Of a DNA stretch of 64,000 nt, positions 12,858 to 26,349 are shown in pieces. Made by a program: the position numbers and the translations under genes. The notes below the pieces were generated by a model. It ran no database searches. It was not told the DNA's origin and saw nothing but the letters and a program-made list of their open reading frames with translations. The stretch covers positions 38,068,001 through 38,132,000 of the forward strand of contig OX638158.1 of assembly GCA_951804945.1 (NCBI GenBank), read 5' to 3'. The stretch is from Podarcis cretensis. Taxonomy: Eukaryota. Each line of letters begins with the position of its first letter. Within the stretch, counting starts at the first letter, position 1.

Positions 12858-13113
12858 GTATGGATAACTTTAGTATTGTTTAATACACTTTATTTTATTG
12901 CATGCTATGCAAAGTACTTTCTCATACTGAAAGATAAGTGCATAGTAGCATACATCTTCTGGACATAACATCATATTGTGAACTATAATTTGGAACTATT
13001 TGCATCCAAAGAATAGTGATTGTCTGTCCTCCCCACCCCCACCCCTGGTGTTGGTCTTTAAAAGCAGGCAGAAAGGCAGTAATTATTTTCCCTGCTTTGG
13101 TGTCCCTGACTAG

Positions 13114-13316
13114 GCAACTTAAAAAGGATTGACTTGACTTCAAATTTTATATCTGAAATTGATGAAGATGCCTTCAGGAAACTACCACAACTTCAGGAAC
13201 TGATACTTCGAGATAACAAGATAAGGCAGCTTCCAGAATTACCACCAACCTTGATATTCATTGATATTAGTAACAACAGGCTTGGTCGCAAAGGAATCAG
13301 ACAAGAAGCATTTAAA
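13114..13316 (+). CDS. EPYC: Epiphycan exon 5 (LRRs)
   Basis: gactag / gtgagt, 203 nt; NLKRIDLTSNFISEIDEDAFRKLPQLQELILRDNKIRQLPELP...GIRQEAFK. Confidence 0.97.
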
Positions 13317-14120
13317 GTGAGTTCTGTATTTAACTGCTGACTAATTTGAAAAAAATCCCTCAATTTGACTAATAAAAATAGCCATTATAAGAGCAGGAGG
13401 GAGTTCTCTCATATAAAGTGATGTGAGATAGTTATTCCAGTGCAAAACAACATGGTGGCGGAGGCTTAATTCCTAAGGTCAGTGTAGAAAGGATCATGGA
13501 TTAGGCACATATTATTTTCCTCTTATTTATTTTATTTTATTGTGCACTGCTTGATTGTGAAAAAGCTCCAAGCAGTTTACAAATATAAAACAATAACATT
13601 ATCAGTAAAAACAACCAAAAGATTTTTTTAAATCGAAATTTGCCACTAGCATGTATTTTTAAGCAACCTGTGCCATGCACATATACATCAAAACTGATAC
13701 AGAAGCCATATTTTTGTACTCAAATTTAATACTCAAATGGAAAAAATACCTTGCATGAAGTCACTGTCAGAGTAAGGTGGCAGTTGTATGGCAGCATGGT
13801 ATGATTCTGTCTTCCGTGCTCTGAGAACAACGGGGAAATTGTGCAGTAATAAAGAGAGAGCTGCAGTGAGGTCAAGCTCAGTCTTATGGCCTGAAGTAGC
13901 CAGGCTTTGCAAACTTTAAAACAAGCAAATAAAACCACTAAGCCGATTGTTCCACACAACTGGAGCTTTGACATTCATTGAATCTCTAAAAAGAATCAAT
14001 CTTGGTACAGATGTTTAAAATGATTGGCTGAATTTAAGTGTCTGTACTCATGTGTGGCTCAGAACGAGAACAAAGAAATCACTTCTTTTAAAAATAATAA
14101 TAATAGTTTGTTTTCTTCAG

Positions 14121-22092: not shown

Positions 22093-23211
22093 AAAGGGAA
22101 TTATGTGATATTCTGCTTCAGACCGAACTACACATTACACAGAGACATTTGAAACTGAATCCAAACCAGCTTTCTTAAAAACAACAACAAACCACCACAA
22201 CAACAACTGGAAGGGAGGAACAGGAGGGGCCCAGCGGCCCTTATACTGCCTGCTAGGTCTCTGCTACAAACCGCCCTGAAGCCTTTCTCCATGCATAGAT
22301 CAAAGCACATTTGTAGTTAAGACGAGGAAAAACCAGCTGGAGCAGACCTACTTGTAGCTGAGTAGCACTGGGAAAGGAAAGGGTTAAGGGAACCCTCTCC
22401 CTGCTACTTGTCTGCTCCAAGTCACACACACACACACCCCAATATGGCTGTCCTGGAAATAAAAAGGACAGCAGGGTTTGGTTATATGTATTTGATTGCA
22501 GTGTGTAGTTAATCCTTTGGGTATTTAAAAGTTAGCTTCTTCTGCCTTCAACCTTTTGATAAACTGGAAGAAGGGCATATTCTGTAGGGTGTGTGCTATC
22601 AACTGAAAATTAAAATTTAACTATAACCAAATACATACATTTATAAGAAACAGAGTTTCTAGCTATAAAATCCATATGAGCATTAATATATTTAGCAGTT
22701 TGTGGGCCCAGACATTCTGCGCAAAACAGAATGTTAAGTGTTACTGCATCAGTAGTTTGGGTAGATAGAAACATGTTGACTGTTACCCAAGCATCATTTG
22801 TAGGAACTGTCCAGAAATCTGATATATATATGGCAGACATAGAAAATTAAATATGGGGTCATGGGCGGTTTATTCACATCATCCCTGTGTAATTTGGACA
22901 GGAAAATCATGAGATGGGTTTGTTTTTCAGCCTTCTTTTCTGAAAAGTAGAACGGATTCATTACTTAATCTTTGGTAACAGCTTACATTGAAGTCGTTAA
23001 AGATGTCATGTGGCATCGGTCAGTCTTTATTGATTACTGTTACACTGGATTGGGGTATCTGAAAATAGTATTTGCCTTAAGCTATGTCTGGCTAAAGATG
23101 CACACCAACATGGCTACCATGACAGTTGTGTGGAGTCAGTTGCCCTGGAGCCTAAAGAAGACAAGAGTATTTGATTCTACAGAGCTGCTCTCAAAAGAAC
23201 ACCTATCACAG

Positions 23212-23299
23212 CCCCACCCTGTTAAAAGCTGGCGGAATGTCCAGTTACAGCCCCACCCATTGCTTTATGATTGGTTCCCTGTTGCCTAGGGTGATGACG
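23212..23299 (+). promoter_or_regulatory. Candidate CCER1 proximal promoter
   Basis: Two CCCCACCC boxes, CAGTTA (MYB-like), ATTGG inverted CCAAT (23270), GTTGCCTAGGG (RFX-like, 23281) and TGACG half-CRE (23295) within 90 bp. Confidence 0.4.
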
Positions 23300-23662
23300 A
23301 TGCTTTATTCAATCTATACAAGGCTCCCAAGAGGAAAGGAAGTTACCACCCCTAGTGGCATGACACCTATGGCCCACTGAATCTGGGTCAAAGCAGCATC
23401 TCACACCGGGGTCTCATTGTATTACGAGCAGTGGCACCAAAGCCACAAAGAAAGAGGGAGCAACAGAAAACGACCAGGAAAAAAAAAGTACTGGAAAATC
23501 AGGAGTGTGCGCCCAGCTGGTTAAGGGCAGAAGGCACAAACCACACAATACAGAACTAACAGCACAAGCAGTGGCTGCTGTGGAAGGAGAAACTCCTAGG
23601 GAGGAAAAATCGAAAGTTGGAAAGGTAGTTTTTTGGAAGAGGCTTCCCAATTATCTCCTGAA

Positions 23663-24427
23663 ATGTGGAGACAGGGACGGCGGTGTTATCAGCAGCTGTC
23701 TCTGCAACTAGGATATACCAAACAATGGCCCAACATGGGAAGAAGGGACCAAAATGGTGAAAGAAGTGATCCAGGAGTGTCTCATGGTAGCCATCATGAT
23801 ACCAAAGTGAAGAAGCCCAAAGCTTGTCACTTTTCCGAACGGAAGAACGGTACGCTCTCTGGGAATGGTAGACCATGGAAGAAAAGGGGAGGCTATTGGA
23901 AGAAGAAAAGATCACCTAAGAAGGAGAAAGCAAAGCATTGGTATGCAAGTCACCAGTGGAAATCCAGATGTTGTAGGATTGGGAGAAGTCACCGCCGTAA
24001 TCGGAAGCGGAAGAGTCAGCGTTTGTTAGCATTTATGCATGCAGCTGTAAAGGGGAGACTGCGCCCCATGAATCTGTGTGGATGGAGGGCACCAGGAATG
24101 CGTGCCCCTAGGAACACAACACAGTTTATCATGCATCAGGTGTACCAAGACATGCGCCAGGAGGAGAAAAGGGCAGCAGCGGAAAAAGCAGCTGCTGCAG
24201 ACAAAAGAGAAGAAGAGAAATCAGAACAACAGCAATCCACAGGAGAGAATGATTGTGACATGGTATTTCCAAATGCCAGTTGCATGGCCACCATTTCGGC
24301 TATGAGCCCACAGATAAATATTTTCATGGGAGATGAGGAAGTTGGAGAAGATGAGAGTAGTCAGAAAAACCAAATATATGAAGATATAGGTCTGGAATCT
24401 CACCTGAGTATTTCCTGTGAGCCATAA
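23663..24427 (+). CDS. CCER1: Coiled-coil glutamate-rich protein 1, intronless, 254 aa from the first in-frame ATG (true start uncertain)
   Basis: Contains LRPMNLCGWRAPGMRAPRNTTQFIMHQVYQDMRQEEK, matching the recalled CCER1 core (WREPGMRAPPNTTQFIMNQIYEDMRQQEK); basic N-half, acidic C-half; downstream of EPYC on the same strand. Confidence 0.88.
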   Translation: MWRQGRRCYQQLSLQLGYTKQWPNMGRRDQNGERSDPGVSHGSHHDTKVKKPKACHFSERKNGTLSGNGRPWKKRGGYWKKKRSPKKEKAKHWYASHQWKSRCCRIGRSHRRNRKRKSQRLLAFMHAAVKGRLRPMNLCGWRAPGMRAPRNTTQFIMHQVYQDMRQEEKRAAAEKAAAADKREEEKSEQQQSTGENDCDMVFPNASCMATISAMSPQINIFMGDEEVGEDESSQKNQIYEDIGLESHLSISCEP

Positions 24428-24498
24428 AAATACAATGACTGGACTATGCGTTTGTATTCCTCGATAGTTCAGAATAGATCTTGATCTCCAGATTCTTA

Positions 24499-24504
24499 AA
24501 TAAA
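24499..24504 (+). terminator. Candidate CCER1 polyadenylation signal
   Basis: AATAAA about 70 nt after the stop, followed by a T/GT-rich tract. Confidence 0.5.
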
Positions 24505-26349
24505 TGTATATTCTGCTCTCTCAGCTCTGTTCCGTCTTTATCTGGTGTGGTTCACATGCTTGCAGAGATGTCCAAAAGGCAAAGATACTATTCTTAAAAC
24601 TCTGTGTCCTCAAAGTCAAAATTGATTCAGGAAATCATTTAAGCTTAAATCCTGATGAATATAAACTGGCCCTAGAGAAAGTTAATTATTCAAAAGTCTC
24701 ATTGAAAATGAAGTGGGAGTTAAGTGTGGCCAAATTTAATTAAATTGGGGCTATTGAGTTTGATTTTGAGAAAGCTTCACATGCTGTGGAAGTGTTCAAT
24801 AGGTCTTACTCCCAATGTATAAGATTGCCTCTTTTAAACCTCTCAGTGACAAGTTCCAAAATGTTAGTGCCACTACCAAGAAGGCCCTGGTCCATGTTGC
24901 CACTCACTGTATTTCACATTAAATGGGTAGGTCAAACATCTGAGGAAGATCTTCATGTGAAGGATGGTTCACATGGGAGACAATCCAATGTCTCCCATAC
25001 AAATCCAGCCCACATTCCAACTTGTAAATGTGGTATCCAGTACTGTACAGGTGTGTGCCTGTGTCTTAGTCCCTATACTACAGTAAGCCCATAGGGGGAA
25101 CAGCACACACACAGGTTGGGTGGGTATCAGCAAGGATCCTAATGGGCCTTGGTCAGGAAGGTCAAGAAAGTAGCCAGGTGGACTTGTACAGTTTGGTTTA
25201 ACCTTCATCCAGAAACCACAGGATCTAGGAGGCCAGAATGCATGGTACCAGCTGGTTTCTCCCTCTTACCTTGGAAGTCAAGGTTCTCAATATGATCTCT
25301 GTGCCCCCCCCCCCAAGTCCCTGACTGCATTGCACCCTTGCTTGGGACAGAGCCTCTGCATAGCCAGTGAGTAACCTTCACTCCTGGGCTGTTAGCCTTG
25401 GTGTCTTGCCAAAGGGGCGGCAAACATCCCATTGCTAGATCACTAGGTTCCATCTGGCCTGTAGTGGCAATTGTGTGATTTGACTTCTGTGGGTCCATAT
25501 GAGAGATGACAGGATTGTTCTCTCCAACCGAAAGAAGCAAGATGTCTACTACTATTAATAATAAAATACGTCAAATGTATTCCACAGTGAGCTTACTGTA
25601 CAAACTCCATTAATCCAGACTGACTCCATAAATTCAGTGCGCTCGTTCTGTCTCATTCTGTGCCCTGTCAGACTGATCACTAAATCTTTGTTTCATGGTT
25701 GGGTTGGAGAGTTTAATTCTGGAACCTGTGAGGCCAATAAATTGTAAAAAAGAATAGATCAGTGTAGAAGAGTGATATCTTTTGTATTCAGTAATGCTTC
25801 CACAAATAGAAAATCGATTCCTATTTCCTGTTTTTCATTATAGAGAAAAGATTATGGCAATCCTCAGGGTACTTACTCTAAAGCAGTCTTATTGATTGCA
25901 TTCAAAAGCTCTAGTTCAGGTGTCTACCATTTCAATGGAAAAGACATTCAGAGGAGTACTTAGGATGACAGTCTGACTTGGTGTTGAGCTGAAACGATAT
26001 GTTCTGTGGGGTGCATTTTTCAGGGGATTAAAATGTCTGTAAGATGTGCTGAATGTTCCCAGCACCATTACTTTCATAGGACCCCTGTAAAAGTGGGAAG
26101 GATATTTTCAGGAGGGGAGTTTAAATAATTAGGTGGAATGGGCAGGTCTTACTCTTAACAATAAAATGGGCAAAGGCTCTTTCTGTAAAATAAAAAATAG
26201 CCTCGCCACTGCTCCATATCAGATTCCCCCCCCCCCTATTTTTTCAAAGAGGGCAGAGGAGGATAACTTGACCATTTTGAAAGGACTAGTAATAGTCTTG
26301 ATACAGCAGTGATTAGAAAGGTGTTTGATAAATTTTGAAATATTCCTCT

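Follow-up and report, generated by a model that had tools for sequence, protein, structure and literature searches.

Lizard CCER1 carries a HEXIM-like ten-residue motif and is a likely relative of HEXIM

Introduction

Does CCER1, a protein of spermatids, descend from HEXIM, and which of the HEXIM properties has it kept? The question is raised by a CCER1 gene in a 64,000-nucleotide stretch of Podarcis cretensis DNA, the whole of which is called the window hereafter. The original prediction, made from the letters of the window, read this gene as a possible HEXIM derivative that engages 7SK and P-TEFb. Mice without CCER1 are infertile, loss of the protein has been linked to azoospermia in men, and the only mechanism described for it is phase separation, for which no partner is named (PMC10713660).

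An intact CCER1 gene in the window

The open reading frame at 23663–24427 on the + strand is an intact orthologue of CCER1. It encodes 254 residues in a single exon and matches Pfam family PF15482 with an E-value of 1.6e-19 and 71 bits, above the curated cut-off of 27. The 77 relatives found for the protein all belong to PF15482, and those with names are reptile or mammal proteins. The lizard gene shares with mammalian CCER1 (C12orf12), a spermatid condensate protein, the conserved core, the single exon, and the site after DCN, LUM, KERA, and EPYC (PMC3997350). Compared with the mammalian protein of about 400 residues, it is missing a cysteine-rich stretch and a long run of glutamates that work in mouse has tied to condensates (PMC10713660).

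The three peptides on which the original prediction drew lie in this one frame, two as basic stretches (23900–23959 and 23984–24067) and one as the motif (24104–24133). All features of the protein are given here on the + strand. The Lys/Arg-rich region (23900–24067), which is placed as the basic region of HEXIM is, ends in a predicted helix (residues 112–132), and the 60 residues upstream of the motif contain 30% K/R and 0% D/E. The conserved core (residues 133–164, 24059–24154) encloses the motif and is followed by a single long predicted helix rich in E, K, and A (residues 152–192, 24116–24238) and by an acidic tail (24239–24424) that is predicted to be disordered and contains neither F-x-x-x-D-F nor a leucine zipper. 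The structure prediction (mean pLDDT 59) is mostly disordered apart from the two helices, the second of which has a pLDDT of 80–97 per block of ten residues; together with a D/E content of 23% in the tail, this bears out the helical stretch and the acidic tail that had been noticed in the letters.

Residues 133–164 are the sole strongly conserved stretch of CCER1 and are centred on the HEXIM-like motif. In an alignment of 32 CCER1 proteins there are 9 invariant columns, every one in residues 149–164, and an alignment of 52 sequences likewise contains 9, every one in residues 133–161. A tandem G-x-R-A-P unit (24080–24109) precedes the motif; its HEXIM equivalent is one G-x-P-x-A-P. Searching the window protein against PDB sequences returned ribosomal S14 alone (E about 0.3), which was dismissed as composition, and in the ESM Atlas only CCER1 clusters were retrieved, with no HEXIM neighbour found.

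Transcript evidence and flanking DNA

Contigs from sequence runs X1 and X5 span 23330–24523 (+) without a joint, and those from X7 cover parts of it. Depth reaches about 2,200 in X1 and is zero in the flanks. The RNA status of the three runs is a guess, and the unspliced transcript is therefore termed probable. An AATAAA polyadenylation signal (24499–24504, +) lies about 20 bases before the contig end. Run X15 had zero reads on CCER1 and was uninformative. Among the 40 of 53 contig differences listed, two fall in the core; both affect the third base of a codon and, by our reading, are silent.

The segment at 23140–23658 is similar to the long N-terminal extension of turtle CCER1, but in another frame and with stops crossed. 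Since the contigs start near 23330 and relatives show single-base indels upstream of the CCER1 start, it probably represents promoter and 5' UTR sequence that has been conserved, and the extension annotated in turtle may be an over-annotation. Two tiny upstream ORFs of 6 and 3 codons, at 23360 and 23369, share the reading frame of the main ORF and lie at the 5' end of the probable transcript. Downstream of CCER1, a low-depth X1 contig over 25595–26084 leaves out 151 bases with CT..AC ends, which suggests a spliced minus-strand transcript.

The ten-residue motif is shared with HEXIM

The motif predicted at 24104–24133 was located exactly there, and the claimed match of eight in ten residues holds against the lizard's own HEXIM, with R replacing Y and I replacing L in CCER1. 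We searched the 1.5-Gb genome with the degenerate DNA pattern A-P-x-N-T-x-Q-F-hydrophobic-M. Three matches were obtained, namely HEXIM, CCER1, and a sister gene of CCER1 described below (CCER1L), and the reversed control pattern gave 0 matches. By our arithmetic about 0.1 matches would be expected by chance, for a pattern that was designed after the three genes were known. The motif match of CCER1 and HEXIM thus appears to be more than chance, and since the motif is encoded only three times in the genome, CCER1 is likely an offshoot of HEXIM.

The residues A, P, N, T, Q, F, and M of the motif are retained at 98–100% in the CCER1 family, and HEXIM keeps the same residues. At the Tyr position, CCER1 reads PRNT in 71 of 77 sequences and CCER1L reads PRNT or PKNT in 120/120. 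Arg or Lys occurs there in none of the 145 HEXIMs with a readable motif, 15 of which carry some other residue than Tyr. Because of this variation, and because a published inactivating mutant of HEXIM changes two residues (PMC6245832), the Y to R change by itself would be no proof of lost inhibition. We further speculate that the invariant A-P may mimic a CDK substrate's S-P acceptor.

Profile similarity between CCER1 and HEXIM is confined to the motif

The HEXIM set comprised the best 150 of 431 representatives plus the lizard HEXIM (151 in total), of which the 145 with a readable motif were aligned. Only one lizard HEXIM locus was found above the cut-off (contig C13, 16.19 Mb), such counts being lower bounds. 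Comparing the CCER1 profile with that of the 145 HEXIMs in hhalign gave a probability of 95.6 and a P-value of 1.1e-8 over 15 columns only, and in a subsample the score of 55 exceeded the maximum of 16 in 60 column shuffles and of 17 in the reversed control. HEXIM (PF15313) is the second Pfam family for lizard CCER1, with an E-value of 2.4e-4 and 21.8 bits, and at E up to 1 it is also detected in 12 of the 16 other CCER1 proteins scanned; none of the Pfam HEXIM scores reaches the 29-bit cut-off, the best being 22.1. A HEXIM HMM detected lizard CCER1 at 6e-4 (Z 20,000) and 22/77 CCER1 proteins at a domain E<0.01, and at E<1 it detected 0/985 shuffled sequences. In the opposite direction the search was weak, the CCER1 HMM finding 0/151 HEXIMs at E<0.01. 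A six-frame search of the genome with the HEXIM model gave three matches, which were HEXIM, CCER1, and one broken by stops, with CCER1L not among them. The second rank of CCER1 in this search is suggestive, at an E of 3 that is not significant.

When the motif was cut out of CCER1, no further similarity to HEXIM was seen on either side (upstream P 0.27, downstream P 0.29). The profile–profile comparison that had been proposed along with the derivation from HEXIM therefore supports it over about 15 columns and not beyond, the significant match of CCER1 itself covering 12–15 columns. Additional similarity to HEXIM is contributed by the sister gene.

Lizard CCER1 lacks several other defining sequence features of HEXIM

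CCER1 and HEXIM1/HEXIM2 have in common, besides eight of the ten motif residues, the order of basic region, helix, motif, and acidic region, and in the lizard each is encoded in one open frame. The helix preceding the motif in CCER1 (residues 112–132) loosely resembles that of HEXIM1 in the structure prediction. Unlike HEXIM, CCER1 carries Arg for Tyr, its motif forms part of a longer core specific to the family and runs on into the long helix, and it has no alignable 7SK-binding ARM, no F262/F267, and no zipper. The bipartite ARM with W-K-P-Y was sought in CCER1, and its region is basic yet unalignable to that of HEXIM (P 0.27–0.28), with PY present in 3/69 CCER1 proteins vs 136/142 HEXIMs; the proposed engagement of 7SK is accordingly left without sequence support. 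A 'KK..HW..W echo' of HEXIM upstream of the motif was also dismissed, as the profile similarity of nine sauropsid CCER1 sequences to HEXIM was not significant (P 0.28 and 0.09), the echo is missing in mammals, and the X5 contig, from a close relative, has lost the HW codons through an in-frame deletion of 15 bases at 23930.

The Cyclin T-binding peptide with F262/F267 is absent from lizard CCER1, the C-terminus of which shows no trace of its register, and the corresponding regular expression F-x-x-x-D-F matches 8/77 CCER1 proteins. In mammals the C-terminus keeps to this register only weakly and is at best degenerate (38 of 68 sequences, chosen by a regular expression; P 0.017 to CCER1L and 0.44 to HEXIM). 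The best share of hydrophobic residues at a/d positions is 0.375 in CCER1 vs 0.625 in HEXIM by a crude heptad count for a leucine zipper, and Pfam finds 0 families on the CCER1 tail.

On these comparisons CCER1 is a relative of HEXIM and not a full HEXIM, since four defining tests come out negative; of the reading as a HEXIM derivative, the descent is supported, and the alignable 7SK region and the full HEXIM build are not. It is accordingly very improbable that CCER1 acts as a true third HEXIM that binds 7SK, clamps P-TEFb, and shuts transcription in elongating spermatids. The HEXIM-like order of its regions would fit such a role, as would the granules of CCER1, which peak at steps 9–10 and are gone at step 11 (PMC10713660), and a review naming CCER1 among RNA-binding proteins (PMC12766463). 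Against it stand the lack of an alignable ARM, of the Cyclin T motif, and of the zipper, and the finding that the knockout reduces rather than raises the main target transcripts.

A sister gene, CCER1L, carries both P-TEFb contact motifs of HEXIM

The CCER1 model detected a second lizard locus above the cut-off, at 77.725 Mb of contig C2 (L005:1141–1899, − strand), which encodes a 252-residue protein in a single frame. We refer to this member of the wu:fb55g09 family as CCER1L; fish genes of the family are often automatically named CCER1. We found 282 relatives, which include at least ray-finned fish, coelacanth, frogs, reptiles, and birds among the 120 listed, and the protein is conserved over its full length across these groups in the matches listed. 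A mammalian CCER1L is not named among those 120. A C12orf12 homologue has also been mentioned for shark heart (PMC3832898). CCER1L and CCER1 are alike in a core of 37 columns (probability 99.1), the single open frame, and the site by a paralogous proteoglycan cluster. CCER1L differs in being conserved over its whole length and in ending in a HEXIM-like Cyclin T motif.

Against the HEXIM profile, CCER1L aligned with a probability of 94.3, and Pfam HEXIM was found at E up to 1 in 32/32 members scanned. The C-terminal part of CCER1L reads F-M-x-[RK]-D-F-x-E-F-C, the HEXIM counterpart being F-L-x-[KR]-[DE]-F-x-E-x-Y. The two phenylalanines correspond to human F262 and F267, which HEXIM needs to bind Cyclin T1 and the second of which is conserved to nematodes; the likeness of nematode HEXIM to the human protein is limited to three parts, namely the basic region, PYNT, and the Cyclin T peptide (PMC4227133). 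This second motif had been noticed by eye before testing. An alignment of CCER1L to HEXIM at F-x-x-x-D-F persists after excision of the first motif (probability 46, P 2e-4), and in a subsample the score of the second motif was 23 vs at most 19 in shuffles, 0/60 of which reached it. F-x-x-x-D-F is present in 119/120 CCER1L proteins among the matches listed and in 104/145 HEXIMs. CCER1L, to judge from its sequence, carries both HEXIM motifs that contact P-TEFb. It stops at a median of 15 residues past the first Phe of the second motif, has no zipper, and contains a further conserved acidic block. The order of basic region, motif, and acidic region, each time in one open frame, is the same in HEXIM, CCER1, and CCER1L.

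Other searches with CCER1L were negative. Its tail alone matched 0 Pfam families, its profile had 0 matches in PDB at E 10 and did not recover the two solved HEXIM1 chains, and the ESM Atlas, with CCER1 clusters skipped, gave nothing usable. In bowfin, sturgeon, and eel CCER1L (P0112, P0117, P0114, P0119), P-Y-x-K occurs 33–36 residues before the motif, KPYY of HEXIM being at 36. As an echo of the HEXIM KPYYK, PY-x-K was rejected, since it occurs in 13/110 CCER1L sequences vs 9.2 expected and is unenriched family-wide, and it serves as a lead only.

The sister gene bears on the possibility that the family of CCER1 has no common origin with HEXIM and that the ten-residue likeness arose independently, by convergence or chance, which we consider unlikely. 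The match is short, the Pfam scores are sub-threshold, a few chance matches near E 2e-4 are to be expected by our arithmetic when a proteome is searched against all of Pfam, and the second motif was picked by eye ahead of its test. The two separate motifs of CCER1L, however, stand in the same order as in HEXIM and each scores above all shuffles, the genome holds three matches only, and the charge layout and single-exon build are alike.

The two genes lie beside paralogous proteoglycan clusters

Upstream of CCER1 lie a decorin exon, two further proteoglycan genes, and, within the window, a leucine-rich-repeat (LRR) exon (13110–13337, +). This exon belongs to the final proteoglycan gene of the cluster, which its position marks as epiphycan, and served as a synteny marker outside CCER1. 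A PDB match identified decorin, and the remaining three genes were named from their position and LRR content. Human CCER1 likewise sits with EPYC, KERA, LUM, and DCN (PMC3997350). Osteomodulin and an OGN-like exon lie 70–90 kb from CCER1L, and the latter exon is 49% identical to the LRR exon of the window. Of the four clusters that arose in the two vertebrate genome duplications, related as (A,B),(C,D), the one ending in ogn is A and the one ending in epyc is C (PMC11917481). Because CCER1 and CCER1L are both found beyond the same end of their own paralogous clusters, it is likely that they split at the first genome duplication. This dating is qualified by the position of CCER1L on the opposite strand and by at least one long ORF that separates it from its cluster. 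A 602-residue open frame with no Pfam match (L017:5009–6814, +) lies between the OGN-like gene and CCER1L, and may be NOL8, to go by human gene order.

HEXIM itself lies on C13 near a formin gene and a CDK5-activator gene and has no synteny with CCER1, a point in favour of an independent origin. CCER1L as HEXIM's own ohnologue beside formin was rejected, since formin matches on C2 occur only at 6.2 Mb and CCER1L is at 77.7 Mb.

A possible route from HEXIM to a condensate protein

The rarity of the motif in the genome, the second HEXIM motif of the sister gene, placed in order, and the paralogous synteny together strengthen the case for common descent of CCER1 and HEXIM, which we regard as very probable. 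With the same high probability for the whole sequence of events, a HEXIM copy would have settled beside the ancestral proteoglycan cluster and been doubled with it; CCER1L would have kept the CDK9 motif together with the two phenylalanines for Cyclin T and come to end before the zipper, and CCER1 would have kept the CDK9 motif only.

Besides contacting CDK9, PYNT forms the hub of self-inhibition in HEXIM1 (PMC12901311, PMC10083321). The region of Y271 contributes to inhibition (PMC1885667, PMC10996279), and a 12-residue HEXIM piece tethered by the binding domain of Tat inhibits without the zipper, an effect abolished in the two-residue mutant (PMC6245832). We propose as the best explanation, at somewhat less than even probability, that CCER1 is HEXIM-derived, keeps the CDK9-contact motif, and docks on P-TEFb without the 7SK-controlled switch. 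Binding of P-TEFb by CCER1 taken by itself may be judged nearly an even chance, and for CCER1L it is rather more probable than that. Of the two genes, CCER1L is arguably the one to try first in a P-TEFb pull-down.

It is also possible, with a somewhat smaller probability, that CCER1 was derived from HEXIM and then repurposed, P-TEFb having been dropped and the 32–37-residue core binding another partner, such as another kinase, a chromatin enzyme, or the charged regions of CCER1 itself. Conservation reaches well past the HEXIM-like residues, and the core exceeds the HEXIM-like part about threefold in length, a possible sign of a new partner. That a Cyclin T motif, a zipper, and an alignable ARM are gone from CCER1 is in line with repurposing, and the motif of HEXIM1 as a hub of basic–acidic contacts (PMC12901311) would suit condensate formation (PMC10713660). 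On the other hand, the seven residues retained in CCER1 are those that HEXIM keeps, and CCER1L retains the two P-TEFb contact motifs and drops the rest.

For docking on P-TEFb, the motif of CCER1 is predicted to bind CDK9 weakly, with avidity provided by self-association in spermatid condensates. The Arg-bearing motif would then tether P-TEFb or displace HEXIM from it, which we consider clearly likelier than inhibition because Arg or Lys occupies the Tyr position and the Cyclin T clamp has been lost. The P-TEFb so tethered or freed would support the high output of protamine and transition-protein genes. H2B ubiquitination depends on CDK9. Mouse CCER1 forms self-associating, euchromatic nuclear condensates up to step 10, and the Ccer1 knockout mouse has lower levels of Tnp1/2 and Prm1/2 transcripts, of ubiquitinated H2A/H2B, and of acetylated H4 (PMC10713660). 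Counted against docking on P-TEFb is that the knockout alters only 182 of 22,259 transcripts, with increases in 110 and decreases in 72 (PMC10713660).

Taken as a whole, the scheme is doubtful. It would comprise a hidden second HEXIM branch, doubled at the first duplication, in which CCER1L is a zipper-less P-TEFb binder and CCER1 its germline sister that tethers or frees P-TEFb in condensates, and from which protamine silencing and male infertility on loss of CCER1 would follow.

Significance for the CCER1 family

No link between CCER1 and HEXIM was found in the literature searched, which did not extend to subscription papers, PANTHER, InterPro, and interaction databases, where an automatic link may exist. 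CDK9, P-TEFb, and 7SK do not appear in the text of the CCER1 knockout paper, nor do five P-TEFb/7SK gene names in its two text supplements, outside which data tables may lie (PMC10713660). CCER1L (wu:fb55g09) is uncharacterised in the literature found, its name appearing in one paper.

Control of P-TEFb is usually described with HEXIM1/2 alone. HEXIM ancestry, if true, would narrow the mechanism of CCER1 to ten residues and one kinase, in a form that can be tested, and with CCER1L an unstudied gene, present from fish to birds and apparently equipped with both HEXIM motifs for contacting P-TEFb, comes to light.
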